A DNA stretch of 61,090 nt, filler included. It is 8 parts of 8 records of this genome, joined end to end, with 100 filler letters (N's around TTAATTAATTAA, not from the genome) between each part and the next. Parts side by side here need not be neighbours in the genome. Positions count along the whole stretch, not along the records: positions 34,384 to 49,261 come from SRR15195285_40; 7 more parts are not named here. One strand, given 5' to 3'. Under the pieces are notes generated by a model, which saw only the letters and a list, made by a program, of their open reading frames with translations, made no database searches and was not told the origin of the DNA. The translations under genes were made by a program, and so were the position numbers. The first letter of the stretch is position 1, and each line of letters begins with the position of its first letter. Below are positions 2 to 53,691 of the stretch, one piece after another.

Positions 2-3000
2 CCAGAGCCGCAGCCGGAGCCGGAGCCAGACCTGCAGAAAGATGTCGAACAGAAGCCGGCGGTGTCGGATTTAGAAGTGGTTGAGCGGGCAAGCTTGCCA
101 GCCAATGAGCTAAGCACCGCAGTACGCAAAGAGGTGAAACGGGTCGTTGCCCAAGAGATTGGTCTTGTCAAAGCTATGTCATCTTTGGTGCATATCAGTG
201 ATGGAAAGCGGAGAAACTTGCAGCGTGTGGCCAACAATGCCATCAGCGACCTCATTATCGACCCAGTGGGTCAGGTTCAGTGGACCTTTGGGCAACTTGG
301 CCTGGATTTGAAAGCTTCTAACACAGTTGAGTATGGACATCAACGATATGAGCAACTGCGACAAGCCGTTGAGCACGCATATACAGCTAAATTACTTCAA
401 GCCTCGGGATTCCTAGAAGAAGCTACATTTCGATTTAAGATTTGCATATCTGAGTACTGCAGTGCGGCAGGCTTCGACCACAGCTACACAGGCAGCAATC
501 CTATGCCTCTCAATCATGCTCGGGCTCGGATCGCTGACCACATTCTTTACACAGACCCTGAAATCGGATACCGCTTGCGTGTTCCTTGCTTGAAGGAAGA
601 ACTAGAAACAGTGTATTGCTCATACGGCCAGCTTGCTCTATCGTATTTTCTCTGCGCTGAAGAGGCCCAGGCCCACGCAGCACAGCTTGAAAAAGATGCA
701 CAAGCTTTCGACGAGGGCAACTCCTGCGCCGATGGCGAAAAGTCTCCAAGTGTGTTCGAGAAGATTGCAGCAGTAGCAGCTATTCGTGTGCTGTTTCAGA
801 AAATTACAGCAGCACTTAACTCATTGGAGTCGGTGCTAGACCCATCGCACGTGCAGACTGTACAAGATGCGTTTGATCGACAGGCCAATCATGAGATGCG
901 CCAGAGAACGGCCGCTGAGTATGTGCAGCAAACTGCCGCTGGTGTTACTACAGCGAGATCCTTCATTTGTTTCTTGGAACACAGGGAGCGTTGGGACACA
1001 CTGCCGACCAGTGCACTGATTGGAGCGAGTTCTCAGCTGATCTTGAAGTTGGTGCACCATGGCGAGATTGCACTAGCAACGAAGCTGTACAGCTGCGCGG
1101 AGTGGTGGCTTGATTGTGCTGCCGTCGATCAGCTCGATGTGCCACACCCTTCACCTATTCAGACCCAAGACTCTCGTTTCGGTGGTAAACTAGCGGCGTT
1201 GACCGACAGGGCTCTCCAGCTCTCCGGTGATGTGCTGCTGGGAAAATCCAACGTGATCACCGCCGCATGGACAGTCAAGGCATTGGTTGTTGAGCACGCC
1301 AAGAGTTTGAACGAATCAACGGACGAATATCTCGAGCACTGCAAACTATGCAATCGTTTACCAGACGTTCTCAGAACAACACAGCCATTTGAGCCATCGT
1401 TGCTTGGGCGAGTCTTCACGTTGGTGATGGCGACGCGAGATGTGCAGCTGTACTACGTCTCGATTACACTCTACTTCCTCAACATCAATCGGCAACTGTT
1501 TGGGATTGGTATTAGCAACTGGGACGAGCCCCCAAGGCTATTCGCGGACAACGAGTCCTGGGATATCTCGAGTGAATCGTGGGATGCATTCTCCTCAGAC
1601 AAGGACTCGAAGCTGTACGGCAGCCTCTCGCTTTTTGTAATGGTGATCTTTATCATTGCTTCCTGCTGGACGGATGATAAGGCTACGGAGGATCGGTTGG
1701 ACACTCCAGCACAAACGATGAAGGTAGATAAAGCACGAGCGACTGGTGTGAAGCGTCTAAGCGACCCCAAGGGCTTGCGATACTTGTTGAATGTTACACA
1801 GACGAGGCTGCTTTGGGAATTTGTATGGTTTCTAAATAGTTGGTGCAAAGGGCGTACGGACCTTGCGGGATATCAACAAGTCTTTGTGTACCTTCTCCGA
1901 TCAACTTTTCCCATCGCATGTCTCGGGCTCGTGTCTTGACACGTGTTGCTATATTGGCTGGAGCAGGTACAATGGCTTGTATTTGACTTTGCCACATCTT
2001 TTCATTTTGATGTTTCAGTTTATGTGCAAGCTATTGCGGTGGTATGGCATAGCATTTCAATTCGTCCATGCATGTGTGCCCGGCGAAGATGTAGTGCGGC
2101 AGTGCTGCAATGTCGGTCGCTGCTGTGAGGTTGGGTACATGTGTGTTGGGATCGACAGTTCAGCTGCTGATAGCGTTGATGGAGCTTATCTATTTCCATA
2201 TGATAACATGGTGTTCAGCTTCATTTCTACTGCTTCGGCACTTGCGTTTCTGGGAACTACCGCGACATTACTGTGGAAGGTTTTCTTCCTGATTTTCATT
2301 GCGTCTCAGCTCTTGCTTCGTGCAGCGTCTGTATGTGGTTTGCTGGTCGTGTTGCTTTCCGATTCTGGAGGTCTCTCACCAATCGCGGCAAACACCTCCA
2401 GCTACGACACCTTTGTTCCAGGCTCCGATCGCATTTCAGCGCAGCTTGGTGCTGGCACGCTGATTGATATGGGCAACACAGTCGGGTTGGACGCAGATGG
2501 CCTAGTACCAAGCACGCTGACTGATGCATCGTACTCTTCAGGCGGGTATGGTTTGGTCATTGCGTACATTGCTTTCAGTGGTGGGACCTCCCTCTTGTTC
2601 AACTCGCGATATGCGTTAGGTCTTTCGCAACGGACAGCGCCGATAATGAGCGTCCTGAACGTATTTGTCGCAATCGACGTGTCAGAATATTCTTTGCTCT
2701 CAAGTGCAGTGCCGCGGCCGCCGCGGCTTTCATTTTTTCTCTTCAGAATGGTGGATATGTCATTGTGCCTCGTGCTCTTTATGCGACACCTAGATCAATC
2801 TGTGCTTCCAGACGGGTTGAAGTTTGTGGCTGTCGGTCTCATCTTGCTTTGCCCTGCTCTATATTGCGTGTGTCTACTCGTGCCCCACTCAGACGTTGAG
2901 CCCTTTTCCAAGGGCGTCGCCCGAGCGTTGACGAACGGAGCAGTGAAGAGTGGCTTCCAAAGAGCTCAGGGTTATCCATGCCATCAAGACTGGGGACAGG

Positions 3001-3687: not shown

Positions 3688-3787
3688 NNNNNNNNNNNNN
3701 NNNNNNNNNNNNNNNNNNNNNNNNNNNNNNNTTAATTAATTAANNNNNNNNNNNNNNNNNNNNNNNNNNNNNNNNNNNNNNNNNNNN
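3688..3787. other. Artificial contig spacer
   Basis: N44-TTAATTAATTAA-N44, with stops in all six frames. Confidence 0.99.
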
Positions 3788-8042: not shown

Positions 8043-8142
8043 NNNNNNNNNNNNNNNNNNNNNNNNNNNNNNNNNNNNNNNNNNNNTTAATTAATTAANN
8101 NNNNNNNNNNNNNNNNNNNNNNNNNNNNNNNNNNNNNNNNNN
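8043..8142. other. Artificial contig spacer
   Basis: N44-TTAATTAATTAA-N44. Confidence 0.99.
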
Positions 8143-11363: not shown

Positions 11364-11463
11364 NNNNNNNNNNNNNNNNNNNNNNNNNNNNNNNNNNNNN
11401 NNNNNNNTTAATTAATTAANNNNNNNNNNNNNNNNNNNNNNNNNNNNNNNNNNNNNNNNNNNN
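11364..11463. other. Artificial contig spacer
   Basis: N44-TTAATTAATTAA-N44. Confidence 0.99.
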
Positions 11464-17700: not shown

Positions 17701-18047
17701 GGAGGGATAGCCGCGCGGAAAACATGCGCAACGAAAGTCATCGTCGCTGCGCCCGTGGGAGGACACGTGGAGCAACCATCCTTACTGTCATCGTCGACGT
17801 ACTCTCGAGCCAGCTCTTGTGAGCGAGCCAGGAACGAAGAGCGTACGCTGCTTGCTGCTGACACGCGTTCACGAGTGAATGTTGTTCTCTGTGCCCACTG
17901 CTCGAAGTTGGATGCAGATCCGGGCTGGCGCGTGGGCTCGAGCTCCTCCAGCTCGGGCTCGGGCTCGGGCTCGGGCTCAACGTCGGTAATCGGGTCTGAG
18001 GGCTCCGGAGTCGCAGGCCGCGTAACATCAAGGAGCGGTGTCTCCAT
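11757..18047 (-). CDS. 2096-aa multi-pass membrane protein with a PHTF-like (7TM ion channel superfamily) C-terminus and a Cys-rich loop carrying a hevein-like motif
   Basis: Single ORF with more than 12 hydrophobic segments. [20 protein letters not shown]...[39 protein letters not shown] resembles the PHTF segment AERTYKQRLLFAKLFGHLT...[48 protein letters not shown] lies at ~13820..13860. The N-terminus has a PEPEPE tract. Confidence 0.7.
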   Translation of the reverse strand: [2096 protein letters not shown]

Positions 18048-18398: not shown

Positions 18399-18498
18399 NN
18401 NNNNNNNNNNNNNNNNNNNNNNNNNNNNNNNNNNNNNNNNNNTTAATTAATTAANNNNNNNNNNNNNNNNNNNNNNNNNNNNNNNNNNNNNNNNNNNN
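18399..18498. other. Artificial contig spacer
   Basis: N44-TTAATTAATTAA-N44. Confidence 0.99.
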
Positions 18499-31700: not shown

Positions 31701-33598
31701 CGGCAGTGGCCGTCCCCAACATGAGTGTAGTTTCCGTGTGCTGCGCCCATCTGTCTGATAGTGTACTGCTCGGAGCACAAGTACTTGATGTGGCGCTCGG
31801 ATAGCTTGCCAGACGCGCTACCAGCAAATTGTGCACCCTCCTTTGCCATGACGGCAGAGTTTGCCGCTTCTGGTCGCGACAAACTGTCTGCTCGCCATCG
31901 TCCAAAATCTCGAGCAGAGTCGGCGACTTTCTGAACCAGCGTCCACCCTCCGCCATCGTTGGTCATGTCGCAATATACCTGGATATCGTCTGAATCCAGT
32001 GTCCTTGGGTCGATGATTATCGATATTGTGTACATGCCGTCCGGCGCCCCCGGGTCGCGGTCAAGAATGTCTCGACACGAAGCTGGTTTGAACACCTTTC
32101 CGGAAACTCCCGCTTTGCACGTACAGTCTTCCGCCGAGTCGGAACCGGTCATGTTTACAGTTGATGAATTGACTACGCATCCATGGCAGCCAAATGGCCC
32201 AGGTACCTCCTTGAACGTATCCGGGGGGCAGGCTGTGCAGTTGCCGGTGCCGCCGAGATCCCCAAGCTCCGAAGGGAAATAGCCCGGATCGCAGGCACAC
32301 TCAGACTGGCTGCTCGCCCCAGTTCGATGAAATGTCCCTGAATGAGCTTCGCATGCAGTGCAGGGCCCGGGTCCCGCAGCCTCTTTAAATGTGTCTTCTG
32401 GGCAGCGCTCGCACGTCGCATCCCCCCCGTCCAGTAGCGTTCCATGATACCCAGGGTCGCACAGGCATCCAGATTTCGTGCCATATCCCGGGTCACCCAG
32501 TCCAGAGCTACCAGAATTGGCAGGGCAAGAGACACACACGGCCGAGCCTAGGGCCGCCTTGAACGTTGCCGGTGGGCAGGCGACACATGTCTGGTCCGGA
32601 CTAGTGAGAGTGGCCGTGTACCCAGCACCGCATAGACAGCCTGAGACAGCCAGCGTGCCGATAGCGCGGGTGACGCTATGGGGTGGACACTCGTCACATA
32701 CGGTGGTGCTGGTATAGTATCGCCCCATTGGGCAGTCGCTACATTCTGTGGACGAAGCCATGTCGTGATCATACTTGCCAGGAGAGCATGGCACGCAATA
32801 TGTGGCCGAAACGTCAGCATATGACCCAGCAGCGCACGCTTGGCACACGGTCCCTGCGTTCGTATCCGTGTCCGCAAATCCTGCTGCGCAGTCGCTGCAG
32901 GAGACCGCATTCTCATCGGCGTACTGGCCGGCTGCGCAGTCTGTGCATGGGACATACCCAGTGGCGCTTGCTTTGCCTGGGGGGCACATCTGCTGGCACA
33001 AGGGGGCAGCAGCTTCTCCCGTGTACTTTGCGCATACAGGCCGATAGGCCCCAGCTTCGCCGGTGCCCGCGGCGCCAAACAAGTAGGCGTCGCTACCACC
33101 ATTCTCTTGCAGCGTCACGAAGCTCACCCACCCAGTGATCTCTGCGATTCCCGCGGTCGGATTGCAGCCTCGCTCCACCGGCAACCCAACACAGTAGTCC
33201 GGATGATCCTCGCTGCTGTGGCAGTGGAAAGAGCTGCTGCCACCGCATCCAGCGGGCCCCCAGGAGCCGTCGCCCTCATTTTCACACATCTCCACGTACG
33301 CTGCAACCCCCCAGCTGTTGTCATTCTGCGTGTTCGACCAGTCCGCAAGCGGGTCTTCAAGCAAGCAGATCCTGACGAACTGCCCATTCGGCCCGAGCTC
33401 CGGCTGCACGCCATCACTGCTGACCGTGCACTCAAATTTGCACGTGCCCTCAACCCGCCCAATCAGTAGAACGCCCAGGGCGATAACCAGGAGCACCAGC
33501 TCGCGGGGCTCCCAGTTCCACCCACGGCGCTTCTTCCCTGCAGCGCCGCCGCACACCGTCTCCTCCCTGCGCACTGCTCGCTTCCCACGCATCATCAT
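19769..33598 (-). CDS. Giant polycystin-1-like receptor (~4600 aa): signal peptide, ~20 GCC2/GCC3 (ephrin-receptor-like) Cys repeats, fibrinogen-like, PAN, C-type-lectin-like, CUB, LamG, F-type lectin, REJ, GAIN/GPS, 5 TM helices, coiled-coil tail
   Basis: Uninterrupted ORF; the start is ATG 33598 or 33655. Motifs: LVLLVIALGVLLIGRVEG/TC signal; VYCDMTNDGGGWTLV; YGHGLDCQW..DYVRVFDG (CUB); FFGMMQRVQIWDRTL (LamG); NVALDKSASQSS..ASRAVDG..WWQVDLG (F-type lectin); VTPRVGVAIEDTF..GWVDDDQPLTYTF (REJ); CSYWN..W..CSFNHLTDF (GPS); SRAQRV and WL..EPIRV (PKD1-type TM motifs). Confidence 0.88.
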   Translation of the reverse strand: MMMRGKRAVRREETVCGGAAGKKRRGWNWEPRELVLLVIALGVLLIGRVEGTCKFECTVSSDGVQPELGPNGQFVRICLLEDPLADWSNTQNDNSWGVAAYVEMCENEGDGSWGPAGCGGSSSFHCHSSEDHPDYCVGLPVERGCNPTAGIAEITGWVSFVTLQENGGSDAYLFGAAGTGEAGAYRPVCAKYTGEAAAPLCQQMCPPGKASATGYVPCTDCAAGQYADENAVSCSDCAAGFADTDTNAGTVCQACAAGSYADVSATYCVPCSPGKYDHDMASSTECSDCPMGRYYTSTTVCDECPPHSVTRAIGTLAVSGCLCGAGYTATLTSPDQTCVACPPATFKAALGSAVCVSCPANSGSSGLGDPGYGTKSGCLCDPGYHGTLLDGGDATCERCPEDTFKEAAGPGPCTACEAHSGTFHRTGASSQSECACDPGYFPSELGDLGGTGNCTACPPDTFKEVPGPFGCHGCVVNSSTVNMTGSDSAEDCTCKAGVSGKVFKPASCRDILDRDPGAPDGMYTISIIIDPRTLDSDDIQVYCDMTNDGGGWTLVQKVADSARDFGRWRADSLSRPEAANSAVMAKEGAQFAGSASGKLSERHIKYLCSEQYTIRQMGAAHGNYTHVGDGHCRGTTEDDRVNGRALNAVGAADCEAACDANGDCLAYDHRVADGHCHLYGPGLDDNLPSGRRVDACTFAPGAATTDSGSCTSAESCDALGWPPGFGSDSICAASRLTHNGETDIDPPACFGADSSVVEGIGHATAICHAQGARLCTADELVADEATGTGCFDLQQVWTSTPCTGGAVSMQGNGDGSRICQTDVSQNLGVRCCADAVVDTPCLSPHPCLTANTGTAALVNHGEVQFPPHGGNYGHGLDCQWRLSCAVGQPVVSINSVSTQADGDYVRVFDGPSNLASVLGEVLHGELNEAEIRSGSTPDVLIQFESNGHTAQSGFGFSFTCRGGARLDEQIGVVGTAGECADLVQSRRPEAVAATIFGESCWARYNEPHPVCGVVGMAECDGSCVPSCAFAVLGYANLWSGLAVHTCEVPTGLAQPALMFDGSESISAVRPRVPTGSSMRTVSVWFRPDHCTEGDLPLRSLVSWGGGVSDEKRFAVLHSAACSSSTLFVGTSAATQDGLVHGWSHILFTIRADGGMVAFHDGLIAGSHSLQSLDTGAMNSQQPLVIGARLDANGAYSDYFFGMMQRVQIWDRTLTESDAWAEYTNSGGMAIDSLVTQLVAAESRFGGELIDLRDAVVIRSTALVNVALDKSASQSSTALGGAASRAVDGIDSSDFLADSCSHTNAGTNEWWQVDLGAVYDIDAIEIYHRTNCNVFCDAELVGARVYVSTSAAYGTGVLCGTLGNNLAVPDALSCRHSGKYVTVAQPGSRAITICELRVMAFPLTAQQAVINVGVKRRGSTDIRRATASPVSDGLMAEWMGYPAVSTNVGTFKPAEGVVCQRRSTQRDQPPIFCEFGDVNDYNETSHNPLKRCASQADLLMGNTELITPQETNMSAACVARHKVVCEAALTEAACSAVLPDGNRVCAWGGARCTAIQDTRGSPAGSFVAGNLVEGWRWTAVWQNASIAAVHASGAEYTVKWDDGAAPSRMPASKLRKRTGVTGQQSKLCVDAISQSSCELTGPTPDVCAYIPSKPPNLRGFSTWGNIPGTTITDLHSGSDPLRMGSPVAYGRTTSDAGCSVAGGCHVQVFCKPPQIRSGIGECRMCLEDEFKDSNSGARCEACTAHSGTNGKLASESVTDCLCDLGYTGTLVDLDSICTACPADMYKDVKGPFSCTPCPANSNTAGRENRTDVSQCLCDPGYTGSATTGCIACVADKYKETSGSDRCLACPAESTTDTSDARGLRGDCKCNAGWTGDLSIHTIVCSQCAIDYFKSALGGQNCTLCPANSETVSSSANLNPSRNGGSSGAGIIGSANDDGVYFPVRSHAVAKQTGSATIHSCQCAPGYYMDGVAGNCAACPPDHYKEVYGDGACDRCADNSHTRGQSASYLVSQCLCDSGYYGPGALQGTQEFRGRSPAESSRGPLPQGLLTTSDSMCTACAVGTFKSTIGRADCEACLDESSDTDTATTASAMRGDCLCAIGYQGNMSIPGVTCRQCDSDTYKPTPGPMDCTRCPPNSGTRGAIGAIDGTHCSCDPGYVGGLVNGSVICEACPEGKYKASYGTGDCLLCPDSSYSSSNARSMSDCGCNQGYFGGEVISVGSWPSETEYAMDPTMLRELPAPCHTPLGSEYPAFCSPIEADGETQYVQYTGLLTGSNSRCFPCAAGWYKSNVGPHPCDRCPADSVTLEDKSDGVDDCKCNPGFFGDVSSSDGTCAPCDPNTYKAFVSVQPLQPCIECPDFSGTSGAYYSTSVDDCKCETGLEKVRFLNESEACMRCSPGMYKDTAGDAPCVSCPANAGTGYVPFAQNHDDYLKIHVIGATDITNCSCKPGYSGQISGTSSTCSMCSFGFFKAEYGAADCIECGPGTQALESWYVPPKVPDNKTVCACNPGFKQVQSQLNDAMVECEECPADQYKESQSSADECDACPDHSSTLTRRGVNISSACICNRGYSGSVSAGYDSSVSVSPCVACPPGKYKDEVGSGACMQCPVNANTKGPLDASPLHAATGVDQCYCNTGYIGTIAAPHDTCSECVSDSYTGTPGSVVCAPCPANTWTRGRRAVGTVRECYCVDGYVNDGGYRASNGTWLRGHGECVRCTVEYFRATQDLDCSGTIPPYVEIQPIDGNRAKINPSVRFALTASVEDGALLDWAAWDGPSEDRIDRRFQMDQPFLAPDTGVSDPFLIVAAGQLTPRSWYRVRLTATIRRPGDVKDTAGSVDLRFGVNDCPGGGEVSVTPRVGVAIEDTFVVRATGWVDDDQPLTYTFGLSRNASQPTSWMNRPTNNATFATFLPEGTRGVNDTYLQDLVVLVTDLYGAQTTHTTVVDVHPWYPAGSFVEEFETKLSQLENGTQVASAVGVMAFMLNMNASHMQNGTVEHTGAVEARQQLSEYLLTSMLATQDLNASERQSALSVFASSAAVVTAVTDQVSLKCMDSVISLLGLVTQTTALEAETAVSIASAADNIFIALDHGPVFPSAARVPRLVGVLNKVSAGVAARLVPGEPPEVLAVTKFVMETQKFRTTGSNGTKLANGLVTMPAMDITHLNESQWMNRTLSQSQDDSLVSQAIIWSDGFNPFAFGGVKPADEGVGETVALRSQIVSFSLFLDGNEVILRNLPEPVIVNISLHPTEYYRVPDTCRNAKCINTYDVAHYDGACADLLDKGRYNCDKHFCIGCPLAGFCDLSCSSECTHARDCLGPMMEPVQARNETDCLTTGHTWYPAIDKLCSPLTESPAPPPTDETNCTGGKRWVINPDPSAFVCLETSSQLVLSGMGQDPGPRYGPIMDATDCAQKGAAHHADNCGSLGLDNFNRCEHADSCIAPRGSSEADKAACAATTINGVDFSGRDASDRRVSCEATALSAGGGTCEYTPRGTACVPRTVCLSTLHEWHRPEYTCQTLSGRNAVPERLLSDEAECQNGNHWTTPRAGVCQHVDGRPVATANNQSACEISKNQWVPLEVREAAAEAAAISMNLNALNTSNTSNASLVDSVPSTFTCDLAPEVACSYWNPVSGRWMQDGIILEKTPNFMLCSFNHLTDFGAMIGAAPQAAELPSLIQTFRLESWEQGTIGLSVTGAILACLLFCCSGSAWRYLALSATRTRRLVKEQATGDPIKQGDYADAIFALKGFDSTVAFQEHVHTEIMLRTKWNIGALCIPLVGDPTSRAQRVVIILVAILCTMAVGLMFYKNPIFPTIDVCEGRPDVHGLSTNCSAVTIEQQIQECECKTYFSANGCEHCAVGPFEGASSRVGPRGAIQNCSDFCDEHVPSEVHAVMLTTFIVAILSLLVHQLLDHLHRPFLDMLRVEGTLLREAESDALKREREKALMDVKAVGSKRAFTKRSSRRLMRLPTELGSLQIDGAEQVDMAAAVQNAHDLDALPALPKRKVWYTTESGSHIPVAPQMRRQALKKLDDKRKATIIDLLLRKSVRYREDYKRIQKRKKELRAMPLPKLKIVAQRELKRLGKTSIDDQGRYVQDMQDALTFVREIPDYSPQLDDPAVHSRRIIVGVYLSILAIGACCAVVIAVHIVQLSAAFTMQWLHGCALSVAIHLVAVEPIRVLVVGHAKRRWHGLHREKDEKPGDELSIDTPDMIKLGGLSEEDQLAKDKDEIERAAEGIQQTTMDPGAEVLNQDVAFGKESRWASLTTSVTTRTKAAGAFKLALQQRSHISNSTNKSAAGEAMISLGPPASSGAEKFASGIAVAKASRKLAKKQRQLAKASLKLATFTQFLTAAQAEIIDNIVEAFHAMKNSHIMEKHVYERQQVDDEEEREILNVKLNVAMSRFDKLVEAFKVDVQQVTSGAPISQGLEDPMTHDLSDELLENNLTYDAIMDMYEEAIEKAKKKLGALQDGSALSESVQERLIEQKTGMRTKASRVEDLLAKYDRELDDVIENSSTLQLDESELMEAGLDPEQHPTSADEMESRADASVLDDNSEVMSPRRPMEPRPAGGTGRSTPVRSITLESSPLLSPPTAPAGTDVVPDGSATAAEDLTNEIETVTLLP

Positions 33599-34283
33599 CC
33601 CTGCACCAGCCCAACAGCCCTCCACACCCTCCATAGCGTCCAGGGTACGCTTCATCAGGCAGGCCGTCTGGCCTCCACAGCGTCCAGGGTACGCTTCATC
33701 AGTCGGCCTGCACGGCAACAACAGCAGCTGGCAGGATGCCAGCTGCCGCCATCATCATCGCGTCAATAGCATGGGACGCCCGACGGCGGACAGCCACACG
33801 ATCACACTACCGCATCCTACAGCCGACCTCCCGCCCTGGGGACCCAGCCTGCCTTGCCGCCTGCTGCCTGGGTGCGCGGTGAGGAGCACGGTGGCCGACC
33901 CAGGTACTCTTCCTTTACCGTGTTCTTGTCGCGCAGAGTTACCACATATTCGCATATTCGTACTTATTCGTATTAGTTTGCGAGGCATTCATACCATTGA
34001 CGGGTCCATGAATACGAGATTTGGCCGTGTGGCTCATGCAGCTGCATGAGCACGTGGACCCGTGCCGCCAGGGACTCCCGACTGCGACTCGCAAATTTGT
34101 ACGAACATGCCGGAGGGCAGCGGCCGTGTCGTTGGCGCAAATTTGTCGGCGGCGGGATTGGAGACCGGGTCTCCTGGGTTGGTATAATCCATCTTGAAAG
34201 CCGCGAGGCGACCACAAAAGCAGCTGCAGCCGGCCGGCAGGCGGCGCCGGGCTGGCGTGCTGAAACGCACGAAAAACGGCCAG

Positions 34284-34383
34284 NNNNNNNNNNNNNNNNN
34301 NNNNNNNNNNNNNNNNNNNNNNNNNNNTTAATTAATTAANNNNNNNNNNNNNNNNNNNNNNNNNNNNNNNNNNNNNNNNNNNN
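34284..34383. other. Artificial contig spacer
   Basis: N44-TTAATTAATTAA-N44. Confidence 0.99.
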
Positions 34384-35306
34384 CTCCACACGATTCCAAC
34401 CCAGCCTGTGACGGAGCGAGGGGCGCGCGCGCCCGCGCGGCCGGTACTATTCATAGTATACCATTGATATATTCGAATACCTGCGGCCATACCCTCTTCA
34501 TAGTACCGGAGTACCCACCGGTAGCTTAAGCTATTCATAGATCTACTAGTAGTAGTACTAGTACATCGGTAGTTCGTAGTAGCTAGTACAGTACGGCTCT
34601 ACGTACTAGATCTAGATCTAGTACTACATAGTGTACTACGGCTCTATATCTCTAGCTAGAGTACTATTCATCGTACACAGGTCCCCCCCCGGGGCTGGAC
34701 TGAACGTTTGAACGTCGTTTGTCAATTCCTGAGAATTCTCATCTCAGGAAATCAGGATCCTCAATCGTCGAGGAGCAGTACAGTAGCAGAATCGTGACCT
34801 TATGAAGGATAATCTCATTTTATCAGGGGTTGTTGTTTCCCCTGATTTCATAACACATCACTAGTACAGTACTTGTCGCAGTCGGTGGTACGCATTTGCT
34901 GTGTACACTATTGATAGATCTACGTACCCGTACAGTACTGTACGTACTACCAGTAGTACAGTACATGAGCACATGTACTGGCGTACTATCTGTACCCCAG
35001 TGGGCGGGCCTCATTGCACATTGGGGCACTGGCCGACGACCCGCGTGCGCCGCGCAGCGTGCGCCGGTGCGTACTGTGACGGTCGCGTGCCGCATCCACG
35101 CCGCTCGGCGTGAGAAGCTCCGTCGCACGGGTGCCGCGCCGGCTGGCAGCGGCAGGCTGCCGGTCAGGTGTTGCACATCCCCTCGGTATCCGCCAGACTC
35201 TACCGAACGTGGCCAATATTGCACCGGTTCGCGGCTGGGCGCGCCGTGGAGCGGCAAATAGCCGCTGTCTCTCTGCCGTAGGACCCTCACGTTTCCTGAG
35301 GTGGAC

Positions 35307-38300
35307 ATGAGGCGCAAACGTGGCGATGGCGCGGAAACCCGCGATTTTGACATTTTTGAGACGGATAATCCGATGGCGGAAGGGGCAGGGGCAGGCAGCG
35401 ACGAGGATGAGGTGCGCACATACGACATTCCGCCAAGTGGGTCATCATGTTTCTTACCCGTGCGAATTGTTGAGCGCAGCCCCCCGCCGCTCCTGGAGAT
35501 GACACATCCCCGGTCAGTGGAGACCCAGGGGTGTTTGAGGTAGAAGACACAGATACCGGGCGCGGGGACGGGAGAGAACTTTCTCCGCAGGCCATTGGAT
35601 TGGGTGGGACGTGTTTGCTGGTTCTTCCGTGCCCTGTCTTCTTGAGCTACTACACGTTGATGGTCAACTCGGAAGTTTCAAATCTGGTCATCATCATCGC
35701 AGCCTGCATATACGTGTACATGCTGGGTGTAACTCTTCTGGGTATCTTCAGGTGCGTCCTTTCAAGGCGGTGTATCTTCCTGCCCTCTTGTGCTGATCAC
35801 ATGCGCGCGTCGTTTACTAGTGCTTGGGAGTTTCAAAATGGGTCGACAGACTCAATGCAGGTCTTGATGTTCTTGATCACCCTCGCGATTTGTCAACAAG
35901 GCAGCTTCCTCGGCGTGATCACCTCATCTGAGTGTTCGGGAGGAGAAGAAGAAACTTGCCTATACAGCTCGGTTGTAGACGAAACACTGCGCGACTTCGC
36001 TAGCAGTGCACAGGACCAATGCCGAGTGGGAGTTGCCACTGATGGCTATTACGTACCTTGGAGTAGCCTGTGTCCGTGTCTACAGGATCCAAGGCTAGAT
36101 GGCGAAGAGTCCGCTTCATGGGAAGTTGGCGAAGAGTCCGCTTCATGGGCTGGGGCTCCAAGCAACGCGACTTCTTCTGAACCAGACCTGGTGTGCATTG
36201 CAGATGTCCTGAAAAGCGCGAACAACCCACCCAGTGACTTACTTTTGGGGGCTTGGGTGGCGCTCTGGCTGGAAGTTTTAGTCTTCTCCGTCACGTTTGC
36301 AATTTTGTTCACGACTACGGCGCAAGCGCAAAAGAAAGCGGCCGATCAAAGTGGTGGAGCCCAAGTGGCAACGTTGCGCGGCACTTTGGTCGGTGGAACG
36401 GGTCTTCGTTCAGGACACTCCGGGATACCACACGCGCAGAGACACACCAACTATAGCCAACGCTATGTCGTCCTGTCTGTGTCCAACCCAGCTGTACACA
36501 AGCTGTCTCACCGCGCACAGCAGATCAAGACGCCAGAGTCAGAAGACGACCCAAATCCAACATGGAACCACGAGTTCACCGGCCTGGCACTGTACGCTGA
36601 TTCGAACAAACTAGATATTCAGGTATACGATCAGATTGAAGGCGAGCCTGTGCTGATCGGCACTGCGATTACGGCGGATAGTGGTGGAAGCACTGACGGG
36701 ATTTTCATGGACCTGGACGAAGGCAAGCTGACTAGCCCAGAGTACAAAATGAACGGTGACATTGACAAGATGGTCAGTATCCAGCTGTATCACAAAAAGA
36801 CTGAGGATCAGCCAAACCGACCTGCGGGGACGCTTCAGCTGATTCTGAACATGTATCCCGAGAACACAATGTTGCTGAGCACGATAACATCTGTGATCGA
36901 GCAGTCCTTAAAATACGAGGCTGTCATCTTCGCAATGGTGTTGCTTTCAATGCTTGATCTGGCTCTGTGGAGTCCAGCAGCTGCTCTTTCTCCGACGATG
37001 CTGGCCGGACTGCACATTATTGAGTTGTTCATCGTTTTGGAAATGTGTTTTGAACTTGTTATTGAGATCGAAGCTGCGCGCCGGCGAGGAGAGACACAGC
37101 TATGGAGGAAGCCTGTCTTCATATTTGGGGTCTACAATCTTGCTGCAAACATGGTCTGGCTCGTCCTTGATAAAACTCAGGGAAACCTGTGGGTGCAAAA
37201 GTTCGTAGCTGTTGGTAGAGTCACCCGACTGGCAAGGGGTATAGAGCGTTTTCGCATTCTTCCCGACGTAGATGTGATCGAAGATGCGCTGGGAGCTGCT
37301 TCACAACTGTTTGCAATGGTGCTTGTCCTCATGTTTATGTTGACGTTCATGTTCGCAATTATTGGAGTCAGCAGCTTTGGTGGGGCATTACAGTTCGAAT
37401 GTCTCCTAGACGGAGTTCAAGAGTGTGACCAAGCTCAGAATGAGGTCGCTAGTCGACTTGGTGTAGAGTGCCCTCTACGCTGCCCAATGACTCTTGCATG
37501 TGCCGTTGATGGATACACTTGGCCGTGGGAAGAGGCGATGGGACTGTTCGAGGCACCCGACAAGCGGTGCGCGCCTGTTCGAGAGCCAATCCCCGTTGGC
37601 TATGACTCGTTCGGGATCCGAGATTTCGACAACGTTTGGCGCGCAACGGTCACCATTCTGGTTCAAGCAACAGGAGATGGAGGCATGCACACGATACCGT
37701 TGGCACTAAGCAATGCTGGCGCACGGTTCACAGGTAGAGGGTGGTTAGTGTCATTCATCATCTCAGTTCTTCTGAACCTGGTATGCCTCAACTTGTTTTT
37801 ATCCGTAGTCTGCTCTGCGTACAGCCGTTCTGCGGCGAAAGCCACAATGGCTCGTGCTGAAGAAAAAGCAGCAAAGGAAGCAACTATAAAGGAAAGCATA
37901 GCTACCGAGACGGCCGAGGAACGCAAGACCCGCATTGCCATAGAGGAGGAGGTGCGTGAGAAAGGAAAACCGGTCGCTCAGAGATCGGAAGAAAAAGATT
38001 GGGTGGCAGACGGAAGTGCATGGATGCCTCCACCCATTCGAATGACTTTGAAGAATATTGTACTTTCTGATTTATTCGAGACCGTGGCCTCCCTGATAAT
38101 CTTGGCAAACACAGTGACGATGTTAATGGCCCACGATGGGATGAGCGAGCAGATGGAATCAATATTGCAGGGGTTTGAAATGTTCTTCTTGTTTTGCTAC
38201 GTTGTGGAATCCATAATGATTTTTGTGGCACAGGGGTCGCAGCTCTTCTTTGAGTCGTCAGAAAACAGATTTGACCTGTTTGTCATTCTTACTTCAATCA

Positions 38301-41300
38301 TGGGGACCGTTGCAGAGTTTCAGCCGGAGCTAGTGGCCAAATTATTTGGAGGTGTCGATCTCGGGTCCGTGCAGTCGTTCCGTGCTGTGCGACTGCTGCG
38401 GGCCCTCCAGCTAGTGCGACTGGTTGGCGGACAAGGAGCATTAATTACCATCATGGGATGTATCTTCAAAGCCTGGCGACCGATTGTTCTTCATCTAGTG
38501 TTCTGCAGCTTTTTCATGGCGGTGTTTGCGATCACTGGAATGCATCTATTCGGAGGGGCACTTCGGGAGTGCGAGCAATCTCAATGCACGCTCGATGACT
38601 ACGAACGGGCACTTCCAGAGAATTTTGAAAGTTTTGGAGTTGGTATGCTGACTGTGTTTGAGTTAACTGTTGGATTGGATTGGTCACGATCTATGTACTG
38701 GTATACTGAACATGCGTCTCAGTCCATCGGCTATCCACAATGGATGGTCCAAGTTTTCTTCTTGATAATGGTGATTTGGATGAACTGCATTCTTTTCTCG
38801 ATGTTCTCAGCAATCTTAATCCACAACTTTGGACACCCAGAAGATAACCGATTCAATATGCAGAAACGAATTTATGGACGCCAGGAAAGACGGACAGCAC
38901 GGATGCTAAAACGACTTCGGGAAGCATTGGATCTCCGAAGTGCTGCGCACGAGGAAGAAAAGCTAGCAGAACACATCAGCCGTGCTGACATGGCATCGCT
39001 ACTTCAACACCACCACAAAAACAATGACGATGACGATATAAAGAACAGGTCACTGTATTGCTTCTCACTGAATAGCATTGTTCGCGACTGGTGTGCACAG
39101 AAGCTGGAGCAGCCCTCGTATCGGAGGAGGGTGATGCAAATGATCGTATTCTCGTGCATTGCGTTGGCTGTGGAGGGACGCGGTGAGCAAGGCATGGGTG
39201 CTGTTGCAGCTTCTGTGACATTCGTCAAAGACTTTGTGGGCTTCAGCTACTTCTCCGTCATCAACGTGCTGGTGTTCCTATTTTTCGTCGAAGAAGCCAT
39301 ACTGAAAATCATTACACACGGATTCATCTTAACATCTGGACCAACAAAGCCATACCTGCAGAAGAGGATGGATCAGCTGGACTTTTTCATCATCGTAGTG
39401 TGCTTCCTTTCCTTTCTTCCCTTCGATACATTTGCTGGACCATGGGTTAGAGCTCTGCGGGTCACTGCAGTAGCAAGACTAATTGGTCCACTACTAGACA
39501 AGACAGACGACCCACAGATATCGCTCGTGTTGATGTCATTCGGGCGCTCAATTCAGGATATTATGTTCGCGATGTTGCCGGTGGTAGTGATAGGACTCAT
39601 GTTTGCTATCGTTGGCGTCGCATGGTTTACTGGTACTCTCTCATACTGTGCAGCTCTACAAGATCCGTTGGCACCACTTCCGTCAGTGGATGCAGAGACA
39701 TGTGCTGCATACCATGAGCTGGCATTGAACACAAGTGCAGGCGCTATTTCCGATTCTGCCCCTGGATCCTGGAGCGCAACTGATTCTGAGTCAGAATCGG
39801 GATCTTGGGTGGATGATATCGTGCGCGCCCCTCTCGGCTTCAGTTGGGAGACGCCTGTGCTAACATTCGACGATTCTATTACTGGAATGGCATCACTCCT
39901 AGTCGCTGCTATAGACGGAAGTCATGAGTTCATGCTGAAAATGGCCGCGAGCTCTACGTCCTCATACTCGTACTGGGTCGTATTTCACCTCGTTTTCACT
40001 TGCTTCTTCGTCAATCTCTTTCTGTGCGTTCCTGTCGCTTCGTTTGCTGCAAACTCTGGCAGATCATTGATGACACTTGGCGAGCTTCAGAGGAGTGCTT
40101 CGGCACTGATGATTCAGAACTTCGAGCCAGGCAAAGTAGTTGGTGCTAACGTTGAGGAATTACGGCCACGGCGCGACTCTAAATGCTTGTGTTGCCAAAA
40201 AGCCCCGTCGTGGTGGTTTTCTCTGCGACAACTTGGGTTCAATATTGGGATCAACGATCGTTTGGAGTATATCTTTCAATTTATAACTCTAGCGAATGCC
40301 TTTGTACTGGCAACTGACACGTATCCAATCAACCAGTTCGAATTGCCTCATCGCGAGCTAGTCACCATTTTGAACATGCTGTTTCTGGTCATCGGTGCAG
40401 CCGAAGTTACACTGAAGCTCTTTGGATTCGGTCCAGCCGATATATTTGCTGATAAGTGGCTTGCGACAGACTTGCTGCTTGTGTACCTAGCAATAATTAT
40501 GGCCTTCGCGGGTGGGCGTAGTGGCATCGAGGTATTGCGGTGTATTCGCGTTGCTCGTATCTATGGAGTGGCAGTGCGTTTGCCAGGAATCGTCGCGCTG
40601 ATTGACATACTCATGGCAAGCATCAAAGCTAGCCTAGCTGTGATTGTTCTTGTGGCGCTCACAGTGTACATTTACAGCATTATGGGGATGTTCATGTTTG
40701 GTGGCTTGCCAACCAATGATAAGCTTCGTGCACTAGGCTTCACCGAGGAATCACCTGGATCTGGCTTTGACACCTTGCGCGAAACGGACGAGTTTTTTGC
40801 GACTGTGTGCCCTTCATGCAGCACCATAAGCCCATACACTAACTTTAACAACTTTGTCGCTTCCTCACAGTCACTGATACAAATGACATTTGGTCAGGGC
40901 ATCCGGGGATTTATCGAGGACCTGCAGTTCTTGGGATCGGGCTGGATGGGTACATACGCATATTTCGCGTCATTTTACATTGTTACAGTGTGGGTTTTCA
41001 TGAACATACTGGTCGCCACTGTGCTACGGAACTTCGACGCCGCCAATACATCTATGTCTGTTGGCAAGGAACCGATTGCCCCCTTTGATCTGGACGGGTT
41101 TGCGCACACCTGGGCTTCTTTATCCATAGGTGTTCAGCGCGCAAAGGCGCTGGAGCGCACTGGTGGCCTGCTACTGGGACATCTGCGTGGAGTCCTTGAA
41201 GAGGAGGAAGAAGGTCTTTCTGAAGGGATAGTTTCTGCCTGCTTTGAGGACGGCGCAGACGGTCAGACGGGTACCCTTTCTGTGACCGTCCTCAGTGTTA

Positions 41301-44300
41301 GTGGCCTCCGCGATCCTAAATCGACTCCATACTGCGCTGTCACGCTGCACAACAGGAACGTCGAGGGTCGCGATGCACAATGCACACGTACAGGAGCCAA
41401 CAAAAACGGGACTGCGAGCTTCCAGCCGAGGCAACCACCCCATGACCATCTACTCGGCGGTTTAGTGGATGGTCTTGGAGGCGTAGCGAAGGGTATTGGT
41501 GGCGTAGCAACGGGAGGCATTACAGGTGGTCTTGGCAATGTAGCGGGAGGTCTTGAAAGTCTTGGTGGGGGGCTCCTTGGGGCGATAGGCAACACGTTGC
41601 CTTTCAGCAGTGCGATTAAGCAGGACAACCACTTTCAATTCCATACGACAACATATACCACACACCTGACGTTTCAGTTGCACGAAGCATTCCAATTCGA
41701 AGATACGCTGCTCGGTGCATACAGCATTCCAATGAATAGTGCCGCTGGCCTCTCGCTGTTGCGGATGAGTTCAGCGGCAAGCAAGGAGGTTCAGTTGGAG
41801 CTGCTTATCAACGATGTTGGTAAAGTTGAAGCAGCTCTGGATGGCGAGGCAGACCGGTGGAAGCTATATAATACAGATATTACTGCCGTCGGTGACGTGG
41901 CTTCTGATGGAGAGGAAGGAGCTGACAGTGATTCTGGTGATGACGAGATCGTTGACCGTGAGGGCGCTGACGACGCCACCGACGATGACGACGAAGGTGT
42001 CGCCGTTTCTGGCAAGAAAAAAGCCAAGAAAACAGCGAAGCAGAAGGGGAAGTCGAAAAGGAATCTCAAAAACTTAGAACAGGAGCAAACATACGATCTA
42101 GAAGCAGCCTTGGCTGAAGCTGCCCCCACTGCAGACGCCATTCGTGAAGCCACGAAGGATGCTGCTGTCCATAGTGAAAAACTCGAGCAAGCACAAAAGG
42201 AAGCAGCAGCCCGACCGAACGACGCTCCCATCCCACGGCTCAGCAAGAAGCCCAAACTCGAATTTCCACCACGTGGCGAGTACCCATCTGATGATGAGGA
42301 CGAGCAGGACGACGAGGACGCTAATATCCCCAACCCATACGAAGGCTGGCAGCCCACTGGCATCAAACTTAAGGTGACCATTGAGTTCCTTCCTCTGGTG
42401 AACAACGTTCCGAAGACTCAGTGGCTGGGTGATCACGCCATTGCCTACCCAAGTATGCAAGCGACATGTGGAACAGAAGGCTGGCTGGAACTATCTGAGG
42501 CTGGCAACCCTTTCAAACGACGATACTGCTTTCTGCAGGCTTTCCCAGAGCCATGCTTCAAATTCTACCGAGATTGCAAAAGCGTAGCGGAGCTTGAACA
42601 GCGAAGCAAGCGCACCAAGCTGCGCGTGCAGAAAATTCTGGGTCAAAACATCATGAGCCTCAATGAGGGCCATGACTCAAAAACCTATGCTCGACGAAAC
42701 CAGTTCCATCACAACTTTCAGATGGAAGCCGAACAGGTTGTGGATGGTGGTGGTCTTGTCGAGCAACGTGTGGGTTTCTTGACCGGAGAGATCGTTGCAG
42801 CAGAGAACCTCACCGATTCACAGGCAGAGACTTGCACACTCTGCAAACGCCTATACTTTGAGGACCTCGACGACATCCATGATGACGATGATGACGAAGA
42901 GGACGATGGTGATGACGAAGAGGACGATGATGATGACGAGAACGCTGAGGATGCTGAAGAGGAAAACCGCATTGGGGCGAGCGGAATACCTCCTGAACTC
43001 ATCGTCGCGCAGTCATTTACAGTTGAGGACCGCCCTGACCAAACAAATATCAGACCCACACGCTATATGGCCGCAAGCCGTACGACCATTCGGCTGTCTC
43101 CCGATCCAAGAGCCACCAAAGTCGGCACGGTGGCGAAAGGGACTGTCGTCACTGTTGTTGCCCATAAGATTTTCGACGGTGTGAAGTTCTTGAGAACGAG
43201 TGATGGATGGATCGCCGGAAACAGTGAGCACCGGAATAACGTCCTCATGATTGCCGAAGACTCACAGGCGCACTACTTTCGAATTTTGAAAGAAGTCACA
43301 ATCGGCAAGGAGCTGTCGATAGCTGAGAATATTGATGCTGAGCCTGTGGGAACCTTGCCCAGAGGATGCGTAGTGGAGGTCATTTCGAGCAAGAAACACT
43401 TGTACCGTCCTGGAACAACCGCTGCCGATGCGCGGGAGGAGCGAGTGGCTCGCTCGGACGAATGTAAGTCGCTGAGTCTCCACGAGCTGAGGGAGCGTGC
43501 ACAGCAGATGGAGATTGACGATGATGATATTGCGGAGGCCCTCGACGATGAGAACCCCAAAGCAGAGCTGATAGAACTGATCCTCGATGCAGGTGATGTC
43601 AAAGGCGATGAGGTCGCAGTCATCAGGCATAAGGTAAAATGCGACTTAAGAGGTGTGCTGTACGGCGGTCCCAGTGGAAATTGTGATGGTTGGATCAGCG
43701 AATCTGATATTAACGGTAACATTACAACCGACACCTACTGCGTTGTTGAGACCGTGCCAGATATACCTGATAACACACCAAACACCCTGAGAGTGGCCAG
43801 ACGGGCTACTCAGAAGGCCCGATCACCTGTCATCGTGAACGACACGAATCCTGTTTGGCAAACCAAATTCGCTTTCAACGTGTACAACTCATGCTATACG
43901 ATCAGAGTATCTGTACGCGAGGAAGGCACGGACGAGGAGGTTGGGTCGGCGACGCTCATGCTTGGAATGGAAGCCGGCAAACGGTCTACAGATGGCATTC
44001 CTGGACCTATGCTGCAGACTCCTAGCGCAAAGAATGTCGAGCTGAGCATGGCAGACCTAACCGAACATCGTTTTCCCATTTCATCGTCCAAGGCCAATCA
44101 AGGCACGGTTGCCATCCGGCTGGGCTACGAGCAGCTGGTATCACATGACGACATATTCGAGAGTTACCAAGCTGCTCTTGCAGATGACAAGAGTGCAACT
44201 CTTGTGTCGTGCATGATGGTGCCCGATACGCGGCTGGTGAGGTTCCGGTTTCAGGCGCCAAATCCGACGATTCAGCGTGCATGGCTAGCAGCAATGAAGT

Positions 44301-45448
44301 GGGTCGCAAAGGGCTGCCCACGTGACGCTAAGCCGCGTGACGTCAAACTTCCTATCAATCTTCTCGCCACCTCTGACAGCAAGCGTGCAGAGCGGGATCT
44401 CAGCCTGGTCGACCTGCCATTTTCAAGAGTTGGACAACTACTACACGGGCTATATCTCCGCCGCGTAATGGGTCGGCGCAAGCCAACACTTCGACACGTG
44501 GCCTACACCGTTTTCCAGCTTGAAACACATTGTTTTGGTCCAGATAATCAAGACACTGCTCGAAAGCGAGGCATTCGAGGGGACGCAGATAAAGAAGGAG
44601 TATATCTGAGTGACCTGCGTGGTCTACGTTTCAATGCCACGTTGGAACGACTTATAATGACATACTATGGCAAGCGTCGCTGCTTGTCTTACCGCGACCA
44701 GGTGGAGGAATACGAGGTCGAAGCGCGCAGTATTGCATCTCAGATCATCCGTACCATGGTGTCACGTTGGGTGTTCAAGACGTGCGCTCGACTGGGCAAG
44801 ACTGTGGATGGACAGCCGTGGCCTTATCATCCATGTTGGCGCAACAACCCCGAGCTGTACGCTATCGCAGCAGACGCTGCCTGTGCTCAGCGAATGTACA
44901 CTCTCCGCAAACTGTGGTCCGAAGTGCAGCGCCAGTCTAAGCCAGAGTCTGGACTAGAGGAGAATGATCAGGTATCTGAGGCACTAGCGAGTGACAATGA
45001 TCCTATACCAGGGACTGGTGCTGACCCCTCGTTAGTTGAAAGTCTTCCTGTGGAGAACGGGGATGTGCCAGTAGACGACCTGGTTCACGAGACCCCAGAG
45101 ACGAGGAGGGAGCGTATCGGTGCTGCGTTTGCGCGCATCCGGGAGAGACATGATCTCACGGACGGCCCCGAAGACGAGCTTGAGGCTAGGCAGCTATTTG
45201 ATGTGCTGCCTCTGCTTAATGGTGTTGTGCTCACTCCTGACGACTTCAAGCTCATCGTCAACGCACTGGGGTGGTCGATGGACACAATTGTGTCGGTGGA
45301 CGAGCTCAGTAGAGCTTTCGAGACACTTGAAGTCCCTGCAGTTGACTTACTGCTTCACGACGACGATGAGAATCCTGACCTGGATAACTTTGACAACTTT
45401 GGTCTCGACCCACAGGAGGCGCTCCGAGCACTCGTGAACAAGCTGTAG
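35307..45448 (+). CDS. Four-domain voltage-gated cation channel alpha subunit (Nav/Cav superfamily), 3357 aa, with extra N-terminal TM helices and C2, PH, SH3b-like and EF-hand-like domains; exons 35307..35411 and 35480..45448
   Basis: Four 6TM repeats with S4 segments (GRVTRLARGIERFR, FRAVRLLRALQLVR, VRALRVTAVAR, LRCIRVARI), pore helices (DFDNVW, NFESF, TFDDS, NFNNF) and S6 ends (LNLFLSVV, MNILVATVLRNF). Phase-0 intron 35412..35479 (GTGCGC..GCAG) links an upstream ATG exon in frame. Confidence 0.93.
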
Positions 45449-46136
45449 TAGCGCCCACCTTCGCAAGTGCACATAGTAATGAGGGTGCCTCGATTACAAA
45501 TGAGCAATGCTAATTATGCATGGAACTGATGCACTACTAGTATGGCCGGGTCACGGGGCACGCGTATAGTAGTCCTTTTTAAGAACACAAACCACAACAA
45601 GTTTTTCGTTTACATGCCAGTCTTTTCCATTTAGCCATATAGGCTACACAAGCTCCTCAGCCGTCAGGGGTGCAGTAGTTTCGGCACAGTCCAGCTCAAT
45701 GCCCATGTCAGTATACCACTGATCCAGCAGTACTTGGTCACGGCCATGCTTGTCACCAGGATAGCTAGCCACCCACACCAGGTGTTGTGGGTTGCGTGCG
45801 ATCGCTTCCCACTCAGCCGCCACTGCGATCAATTCGCCATCGAGGGGCGATGCGAAGGTGTCTGAGGTTTCGCTAGACGATCAGTTTGTGGTGGTTTCCG
45901 CTTTTCTCAGCGGAAACCGCCACACGGCGCCAAGCTGCCTCCCTCGTGGCGCCAAGCTGCCACAAACGGCGATCGGGCGCGACCATGACGGCCGTGTCTG
46001 AAACAACTTGCAGCACAATCATGTATCTTCATGTATAATTATGGCGTGATGCTTGGAAGGTGGTTGTGCCAATTGGTCTTAAGTATTTTTGTTTGCTATC
46101 TACAAGCCTGTTCAGATCGATCCCGAAACACACAGT

Positions 46137-49261: not shown

Positions 49262-49361
49262 NNNNNNNNNNNNNNNNNNNNNNNNNNNNNNNNNNNNNNN
49301 NNNNNTTAATTAATTAANNNNNNNNNNNNNNNNNNNNNNNNNNNNNNNNNNNNNNNNNNNN
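49262..49361. other. Artificial contig spacer
   Basis: N44-TTAATTAATTAA-N44. Confidence 0.99.
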
Positions 49362-53591: not shown

Positions 53592-53691
53592 NNNNNNNNN
53601 NNNNNNNNNNNNNNNNNNNNNNNNNNNNNNNNNNNTTAATTAATTAANNNNNNNNNNNNNNNNNNNNNNNNNNNNNNNNNNNNNNNNNNNN
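53592..53691. other. Artificial contig spacer
   Basis: N44-TTAATTAATTAA-N44. Confidence 0.99.

Follow-up and report, generated by a model that had tools for sequence, protein, structure and literature searches.

The window analysed here is a stretch of 61,090 nucleotides, and on its plus strand, within the contig at 34384-49261, a single uninterrupted open reading frame (ORF) of 3,305 codons (9.9 kb) extends from 35531 to 45448. The product of this ORF, protein P0001, is a four-repeat voltage-gated cation channel of a marine protist. Four six-transmembrane Ion_trans repeats lie in one chain (Pfam, E 1.8e-93), the S4 segments are arginine-rich, and the best sequence match in the PDB is the T-type channel Cav3.2 (9ayg_A, E 1.6e-47). 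Cav3.2, Cav3.3 and Cav3.1 are the nearest solved relatives (E 1e-47 to 1e-42); other Cav and Nav channels rank after these, and the Cav/Nav matches comprise 3-4 stretches. The pore loops of repeats I-IV lie at about residues 700-720, 1040-1050, 1455-1465 and 1795-1805, and the selectivity-filter positions, which we take by eye against Cav motifs to read D/L/D/Q, presumably fit no standard ring (EEEE, EEDD or DEKA). Beyond repeat IV, the proximal C-terminal tail contains a cassette of about 1,100 residues built from C2, PH and SH3b-like domains. Judged by a predicted model and by family sequences, its architecture is very probably C2A followed by PH[C2B[SH3b-1, SH3b-2[helical module]]], each bracket enclosing what is inserted into the preceding domain.

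An earlier note on this DNA had proposed a nested cassette on the basis of eleven quoted motifs, and all eleven are found in frame where that note placed them, a placement that exceeds chance. The region opens with the post-S6 helix aI (residues 1849-1870, 41075-41140, model helix 3-17), which carries IAPFDLDGFAHTWASL (41075-41122) and is the sole piece resembling the Cav/Nav proximal C-terminal domain. Strands 1-4 of C2A (residues 1911-1968, 41261-41434) include the C2 start TLSVTVLSV at 41273 and are marked by model strands, by C2 fold matches and by a sub-cut-off Pfam match. Within C2A lies a Gly-rich tract (residues 1969-2031, 41435-41623) that is predicted to be disordered, with a predicted local distance difference test score (pLDDT) below 50 at model positions 121-182. 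It is followed by strands 5-7 (residues 2032-2094, 41624-41812), placed by the model, the fold search and block hidden Markov models (HMMs). A charged linker of about 175 residues, acidic and then forming K/E-rich helices (residues 2095-2267, 41813-42331; pLDDT <50 at model 249-326 and 382-417, helices at 323-378), sits inside C2A ahead of its last strand, GIKLKVTIEFLPL (residues 2268-2293, 42332-42409), which was located by C2 fold alignment. The split of the first C2 by the Gly-rich tract had been recognized in the earlier note; the second split, by the charged linker, had been missed and the last strand left unassigned, and both splits are now confirmed at the level of the predicted model and the family sequences.

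The PH domain begins with strands 1-6 (residues 2304-2402, 42440-42736, model strands 468-555), which contain EGWL at 42476 and FKRRYCFL at 42512; PH chains align to it over model 462..1082. The first strand of C2B, GFLTGEIVAAENL (residues 2409-2443, 42755-42859, motif at 42773), was assigned from C2 fold matches; in an alignment with the relative P0015, whose C2 is intact, it falls on strand 1. An acidic disordered tract (residues 2444-2505, 42860-43045, pLDDT <50 at model 599-652) leads into SH3b-1 (residues 2506-2578, 43046-43264) and the first part of SH3b-2 (residues 2579-2628, 43265-43414). SH3b-2 is interrupted by a four-helix, Rho_N/HeH-like module (residues 2629-2693, 43415-43609; model helices 783-840, most 10-residue blocks with pLDDT 85-93; weak Pfam Rho_N match, E 0.16), and its last strands, ending in DGWISE (residues 2694-2731, 43610-43723), were placed by the model, the family profile and block HMMs. 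Strands 2-8 of C2B (residues 2732-2870, 43724-44140) contain DTYCVV at 43730 and DTNPVW at 43841, and the PH domain closes with strand 7 and a C-terminal helix bearing a nearly invariant Trp (residues 2895-2932, 44213-44326, with FRFQAPNPTIQRAWLAAM at 44243-44296), identified by family alignment, model and fold search. The chain then enters a conserved helical tail (residues 2957-3130, 44399-44920) with DLPFSRVGQLLHGL at 44411-44452, RFNATL at 44627 and IASQIIRTMVSRW at 44732-44770, comprising putative aII-aIV and a long IQ-like helix. In the strand order of the model, C2B is located between PH strands 6 and 7, and the acidic tract and both SH3b domains are located between C2B strands 1 and 2.

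Structural evidence for these domains was obtained from an AlphaFold2 model of residues 1849-3048 (1,200 residues) based on a 23-row alignment, with a mean pLDDT of 66.5; most 10-residue blocks of the folded domains reach 70-93, and five long tracts fall below 50. The model was compared with 48,161 solved chains by VIA-align, and the 50 matches listed fall into five groups. C2 chains cover C2A over model 55..447 in 21 of these, the best listed being Munc13-1 C2A (2cjs_B, Z 15.2, root-mean-square deviation (rmsd) 3.0, 127 residues over model 64..442). This alignment exceeds the 123 residues available without the last strand, so that strand (model 426-440) must pack with the rest of C2A in the model. 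A further 18 of the 50 are C2 chains matching C2B, whose aligned ranges begin at model 551-566 and reach 1019-1048, with Z values of up to 14.1 and rmsd values of 1.8-3.9; among them are 7atp_A (Z 14.1, rmsd 2.3, 124 aligned) and 6nyt_A (Z 13.6, rmsd 1.8). The predicted C2B is an eight-strand sandwich that includes the distant first strand. Six listed matches are PH domains, five spanning about 460..1085 and one 174..1085. The best of them, TAPP1 (1eaz_A, Z 11.2, rmsd 2.6), aligns 100 of 103 residues over model 462..1082, and since the N-terminal part could supply 94 at most, the two PH halves are packed together in the model as a seven-strand sandwich with the C-terminal helix, whose Trp is nearly invariant in the 23 rows. 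Two listed matches, the lysostaphin SH3b domains 4lxc_A and 6rk4_A (Z 10.7, 78-79 aligned, model 649..728), identify SH3b-1 as a predicted SH3b barrel. SH3b-2 is absent from the matches listed and owes its assignment to a profile match with SH3b-1 (hhalign of the two family profiles, probability 94.9%, E 4.7e-8), in which the SH3b-2 profile accommodates the helical module of P0001 and P0003 as an insert state. The remaining three of the 50 are multi-domain C2 or C2-PH proteins.

Linear domain scans recover this cassette in fragments. For C2B, the Pfam C2 match at residues 2733-2813 exceeds its cut-off (34.2 bits vs 22; 43.6 bits in the scan of the 23 family rows) and covers profile positions 22-91 of 104, thus beginning well inside the profile. 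C2A matches the first 44 profile positions only (residues 1914-1959, 17.6 bits vs 22). SH3_3 matches P0001 in two stretches at 25.4 bits vs a cut-off of 27, and 7 of the 23 family rows, all under 27 bits. A PDB search with the family profile (A3) returned weak C2 matches only (best E 0.0036). Truncated C2 domains and an undetected PH domain are the pattern expected if these domains are interrupted, and the claim that linear scans would miss the cassette thus holds.

Relatives of P0001 provide a view of the nesting that does not depend on the model. The ortholog P0003 (3,267 aa) is 64% identical and spans the whole region (100%); P0002 is identical to P0001, is an ORF call and does not count as independent. 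Relative to P0003, identity is 59-88% across the folded cassette blocks (67-88% without the second C2A block, at 59%; last C2A strand, 88%), 72% in the membrane core and 83-85% in the helical tail. Indels against P0003 are multiples of three and nearly all fall in low-complexity tracts: the acidic tract accounts for 35 gap columns, the Gly-rich tract for 18 and the charged linker for 12, compared with 5 for the second C2A block and 1 for C2B. A HMMER search with residues 1865-2974 identified 45 proteins at E<=1e-3 and 9 at E<=1e-30 (best 34% identity), and a search with repeat IV yielded five further family members. Family members are also channels by Pfam (Ion_trans in 17 of 22 representatives), all EukProt-labelled members seen are Picozoa, and the colinear architecture recurs in independent assemblies (JGI, ENA, Logan). 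Block HMMs are colinear in every protein with at least two detected blocks, except P0026. One family member, P0009, is a paralogue whose assembly label is the same as that of P0002. Among related loci in metagenome contigs, 587 pattern matches gave 0 confirmed; a homologue search with the tail at longer lengths passed 0 of 620 candidates, a weak negative given that known family members in that length range were missed too.

Layers of the cassette vary across the 22 cluster representatives that span the PH domain. The PH is uninterrupted in three of them (P0011, P0021 and P0040, with 9-17 residues between blocks), five have PH[C2B] without SH3b, twelve add the SH3b domains, and two (P0001 and P0003) add the helical module, which is not in the sister protein P0077. 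Members without SH3b show a whole Pfam C2 (profile 5-90 in P0015; 1-97, 89 bits, in P0022), and in SH3b-bearing members the C2 match starts at profile position 17-34. The charged linker is not in P0022 or P0073, where the last C2A strand abuts the preceding block, and by alignment and block HMMs the Gly-rich tract is limited to P0001 and P0003. Because the outer domain is contiguous in relatives that lack the inner module, each level of nesting is confirmed independently of the model. The arrangement PH[C2[SH3b, SH3b[helix]]] put forward in the earlier note is therefore borne out both by these relatives and by fold alignments that need both halves of the split domains.

The history of these layers was examined with a tree built from repeats III-IV together with aI, for which two GPHH-bearing channels served as the root. 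The helical module was gained once, P0001 and P0003 being sister to the module-less P0077 (96/90). P0011, with its intact PH, is sister to the SH3b-bearing P0078 (95/99), and P0012 and P0013 are nested in SH3b-bearing groups (87-89). The SH3b label changes five times on the tree, at least three of these changes being forced by starred branches, and the basal place of P0073 depends on a long branch. By this pattern, modules seem to have been cleanly lost as well as gained, and several simple forms are probably secondary losses. Stepwise accretion, gain by gain, was also considered and was rejected, as the tree gives no such series. In P0010, residues 1156-1205 match Pfam RRM_1 above the cut-off (24.3 bits) between the N-terminal part of the PH (ending at 1140) and C2B strand 1 (starting at 1259), and to judge from the sequence this is another lineage-specific insert at the same hot spot. 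The SH3b tandem also occurs in short proteins with no detectable channel blocks (P0026, P0030, P0032, P0033 and P0018), of which P0033 also has a Pfam PH match, and the two SH3b domains may have been inserted together, already joined.

The region is also represented in RNA. The stretch is present in 19 public runs, six of them RNA, and four metatranscriptome runs were compared over 34900-46100. The best of these covers 25 of 30 bins, with all 26 contigs at >=99% identity, and none of the four has a splice joint. RNA contigs bridge domain junctions at 41131-41371, 41455-41863, 42326-42567, 44088-44610 and 44104-44352, which agrees with the earlier expectation that the region is exonic. One RNA-library contig each, from run X14, is short of one base at 35253 and at 36182, the second position lying inside the ORF; these may be assembly errors or strain differences.

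The identity of the domain that receives the cassette is less certain. The earlier note took the host to be the EF-hand-like domain of Cav/Nav channels, and we consider this to have about even odds. Modest support comes from helix aI, which lies at the expected distance from S6. Its phmmer alignments to Nav1.4 and Cav1.1 extend to residue 1864 (E 0.005-0.009, mostly owed to S6), and hhalign places DLDGFAHTWA on DIEGFKEIWA, the start of the GPHH match of P0083 (E 0.009). Beyond the insert, the tail helices, as judged by eye, presumably follow the order and spacing of aII-aIV, and RFNATL looks like a Cav motif. The alternative keeps the cassette but changes its host: a lone helix beyond S6, then the C2/PH block, and after it a helical domain that is peculiar to the family and has no relationship to the EF-hand-like/IQ module of Cav/Nav channels. 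To this we give only slightly less than an even chance. No part of the family is better conserved than the tail beyond the insert. This tail is helical in both models, and the searches applied match it to no Cav/Nav C-terminal domain. Neither GPHH nor Ca_chan_IQ was found in P0001 (pieces, E<=10) or in any of the 23 family rows (E<=1), in a scan that does detect GPHH in the more distant channels P0082 and P0083. A PDB sequence search with the tail gave 0 matches at E<=10, and a PDB search with the family profile gave no channel C-terminal domain for it. For a tail-only AlphaFold2 model, Foldseek returned nothing at E<=1e-3, and the VIA matches listed are helical hairpins of a generic kind (Z about 8) and, at the far C-terminal pair, EF-hand proteins, with no Cav/Nav C-terminal domain among them. 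Alignment of the family tail to the two GPHH-bearing channels by hhalign gave E 0.15-0.74, an ESM Atlas search on the tail gave a best score of 0.81 and no lead, and a complex prediction of aI (residues 1849-1898) with the tail (residues 2945-3104), run without alignments or controls, scored 0.00 and gave no verdict either way. The Q of the IQ-like helix claimed in the earlier note is not conserved in the family consensus. These negatives are all low-powered for short helical segments, which tempers their weight in favour of a family-specific tail.

Overall, we favour a real, expressed and conserved nested cassette that would act as a gate-proximal tether and scaffold, with a probability of roughly 0.6. 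The chain very probably exits the proximal C-terminal tail about 20 residues past aI, builds some 1,100 nested residues and re-enters the conserved helical tail. As an inserted domain begins and ends at one point, we infer that the block hangs as a side branch, on the segment linking the S6 gate to the tail and directly beneath the inner leaflet. C2 and PH are the commonest membrane-binding folds, and the cassette has two of the former and one of the latter. C2A, C2B and PH could hold the segment to the membrane via phosphoinositides or acidic lipids, probably without canonical Ca2+ sites in P0001, and the SH3b pair and helical module could serve as docking sites for other proteins. On this view, how the channel gates or where it sits would be set by the state of the lipids or by a bound partner. 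This specific role as a lipid-dependent tether and scaffold, drawn from position and folds, is a tentative proposal that we put at somewhat below even.

Several points weigh against this explanation. The model is a prediction from 23 sequences with a predicted template modelling score (pTM) of 0.40. No Pfam match to PH was found in pieces of P0001 at E<=10, Pfam PH matches in 5 of the 23 family rows are all below the cut-off (best 24 bits vs 25.1), and the C2A and SH3b scores of P0001 are likewise under their cut-offs. Contigs from RNA libraries leave room for DNA carry-over and for rare spliced isoforms. The usual Ca2+-binding aspartates are, as we judge by eye, replaced in C2A and C2B of P0001, and the PH has the KRR of FKRRYCFL and presumably lacks the strand-1 lysine of phosphoinositide-binding PH domains. 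Lipid binding is for these reasons not assured. In addition, because the tail is not tied to the Cav/Nav C-terminal domain, the argument for coupling to gating is drawn from position only.

A second functional possibility is that the cassette gives the channel its own means of sensing Ca2+ or of coupling to exocytosis, with C2/PH domains of the Munc13/CAPS/ferlin type that bind vesicles or membrane upon Ca2+ entry; in P0001 we regard this as unlikely. Separate C2 proteins serve at animal release sites. Munc13-1 C2A and C2B, ferlin C2A, E-Syt C2A and CAPS C2-PH head the listed fold matches, but the Z scores of all listed C2 matches differ by no more than about 2, and no specific meaning therefore attaches to the names Munc13 or ferlin. 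The basal relative P0022 has a C2B (Pfam C2, 89 bits) that by eye carries the full D..D / DxDxxDD pattern, and relatives have true EF-hand pairs at the far C-terminus. P0001, by contrast, has its SH3b pair where Ca2+-binding loop 1 would form, by eye shows other residues in place of the loop-3 aspartates (VREEGTDEE), and has no Pfam EF-hand match. The pattern of five acidic ligands in loops 1 and 3, which we take by eye to be present in C2B of P0022, is apparently not in C2A or C2B of P0001. The lipid tether is thus favoured over the Ca2+ sensor in P0001, since the Ca2+ ligands are lacking by eye and the SH3b pair lies in loop 1.

The remaining possibility, that the cassette is an artefact, either of chimeric single-cell assembly or of ORF calling across introns or low-complexity DNA that happen to be in frame, is close to refuted: the window is stitched from contigs, P0002 is not independent and the RNA evidence consists of contigs only, but the architecture is colinear in independent assemblies, 17 of 22 representatives also have Ion_trans, no stop interrupts the frame for 9.9 kb, its indels are multiples of three and lie almost entirely within tracts, and RNA contigs traverse the domain junctions without joints.

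Neither the channel nor any single one of the folds is novel; as far as the literature searched goes, what is novel is how the folds are nested, where the block sits and that a family of natural layer variants exists. P0001 is like four-domain Cav/Nav channels in its four Ion_trans repeats, its arginine-rich S4 segments and an aI-like helix after S6 of repeat IV, and unlike them in having no GPHH/IQ match, an extra C2 before repeat I and about 1,100 residues of C2/PH/SH3b in the proximal tail. The accessible text, supplements aside, of a survey of 277 four-domain channels (PMC5824947) contains 0 occurrences each of 'C2 domain', 'PH domain' and 'EF-hand'. In the literature searched, supplements aside, no paper describes C2, PH or SH3b inside a four-domain channel tail. 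PLC-gamma and syntrophin each contain a split PH domain. Another is the PH1N-PH2-PH1C arrangement of myosin X (PMC3216653, accessible text). As far as the accessible descriptions extend, the cassette PH is like these three in having two sequence-distant parts with signalling domains in the loop; it is unlike them in that the break lies between strands 6 and 7 and in that the inserted C2 is itself interrupted by a pair of SH3b domains, one with a further insertion, which gives three nested levels inside the PH. A 2026 survey (PMC13114784), in its accessible part, lists C2 and PH among generalist inserted modules and describes six-level nesting in RNA polymerase. The cassette resembles the Si3 region of cyanobacterial RNA polymerase beta' described there in its recursive domain-in-domain insertion; Si3 repeats one fold, whereas the cassette nests four (PH, C2, SH3b and helical) in an ion channel tail. 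Like CAPS, the cassette has C2 and then PH, and the CAPS C2PH (7vs3_A) aligns 204 residues (Z 12.6), although the rmsd of 15.6 indicates a different arrangement. The matches of its C2 domains to Munc13-1 C2A (Z 15.2) and C2B (Z 13.6) are a fold-level likeness only, and unlike CAPS and Munc13 it has no MUN domain. The SH3b domains are like bacterial SH3b of the SH3_3, YgiM/lysostaphin type in their fold match (Z 10.7) and in the SH3_3 matches in 7 of 23 rows, and the JGI name for P0005 is 'YgiM (DUF1202 family)'; unlike bacterial SH3b, the pair is cytosolic, in tandem and within a C2 loop of a eukaryotic channel, with Pfam scores all below 27 bits.

Other features of the ORF and the window were also observed. 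An additional C2 domain lies ahead of channel repeat I (36446-36667, residues 306-379, Pfam 27.5 bits, above cut-off) and is kept in P0003. The first codon of the ORF is GTG, in-frame ATGs occur first at residues 44, 64 and 91, and the N-terminus of P0003 is equivalent to about residue 95 of P0001. An upstream ATG lies at 35308 and RNA contigs also cover 34985-35421, so that another start, or a 5' exon, is possible. The far C-terminus (about 45083-45340, residues about 3185-3270) has an EF-hand-pair-like fold in the predicted tail model (EF-hand proteins, Z 8.0-8.1), and true Pfam EF-hand_7 matches occur at the far C-terminus of P0005, P0008, P0015, P0017 and P0077. Pfam gave no EF-hand match in P0001, as a whole protein or in pieces, so its far-C-terminal EF-hand loops look degenerate. 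Seven N44-TTAATTAATTAA-N44 joints lie at 3688-3787, 8043-8142, 11364-11463, 18399-18498, 34284-34383, 49262-49361 and 53592-53691; the window is therefore a concatenation of separate contigs, and genes across these joints are not genome neighbours. Very long ORFs occur on other contigs, on the minus strand at 19769-33721 (4,650 codons) and 11757-18047 (2,096 codons).

In Cav and Nav channels the proximal C-terminal tail is where lipids and separate proteins such as calmodulin exert their regulation, and in this channel the same site bears about 1,100 residues with folds of lipid- and protein-binding kinds. A broader reading, which we hold to be possible and rather doubtful, is that in a lineage of marine heterotrophic picoeukaryotes, to which the Picozoa labels point, the gate-proximal channel tail became an insertion hot spot, with domains slotted into the loops of earlier inserts and also cleanly removed from them (paralogues having 0 to 3 nested levels), forming a cis lipid sensor or scaffold that couples membrane state or a docked organelle to gating. 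If true, the PH/C2/SH3b block would do in cis what animal Cav channels recruit in trans through C2/PH proteins of the release machinery and through PIP2 regulation. The family also provides natural deletion variants, with paralogues that have an intact PH, PH[C2], the added SH3b pair or the added helical module, and these make the role of each layer directly testable. The nesting is unusually deep and combines different folds, and the cassette is therefore a useful test for domain parsers, which miss its PH and truncate its C2 domains. Neither 'ion channel' nor 'calcium' occurs in the accessible text of the Picozoa genome paper (PMC8599508; 0 occurrences each), and the literature searched for the group contains no mention of ion channels. 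The cassette-bearing channels described here are a first functional handle on excitability in this uncultured protist group.

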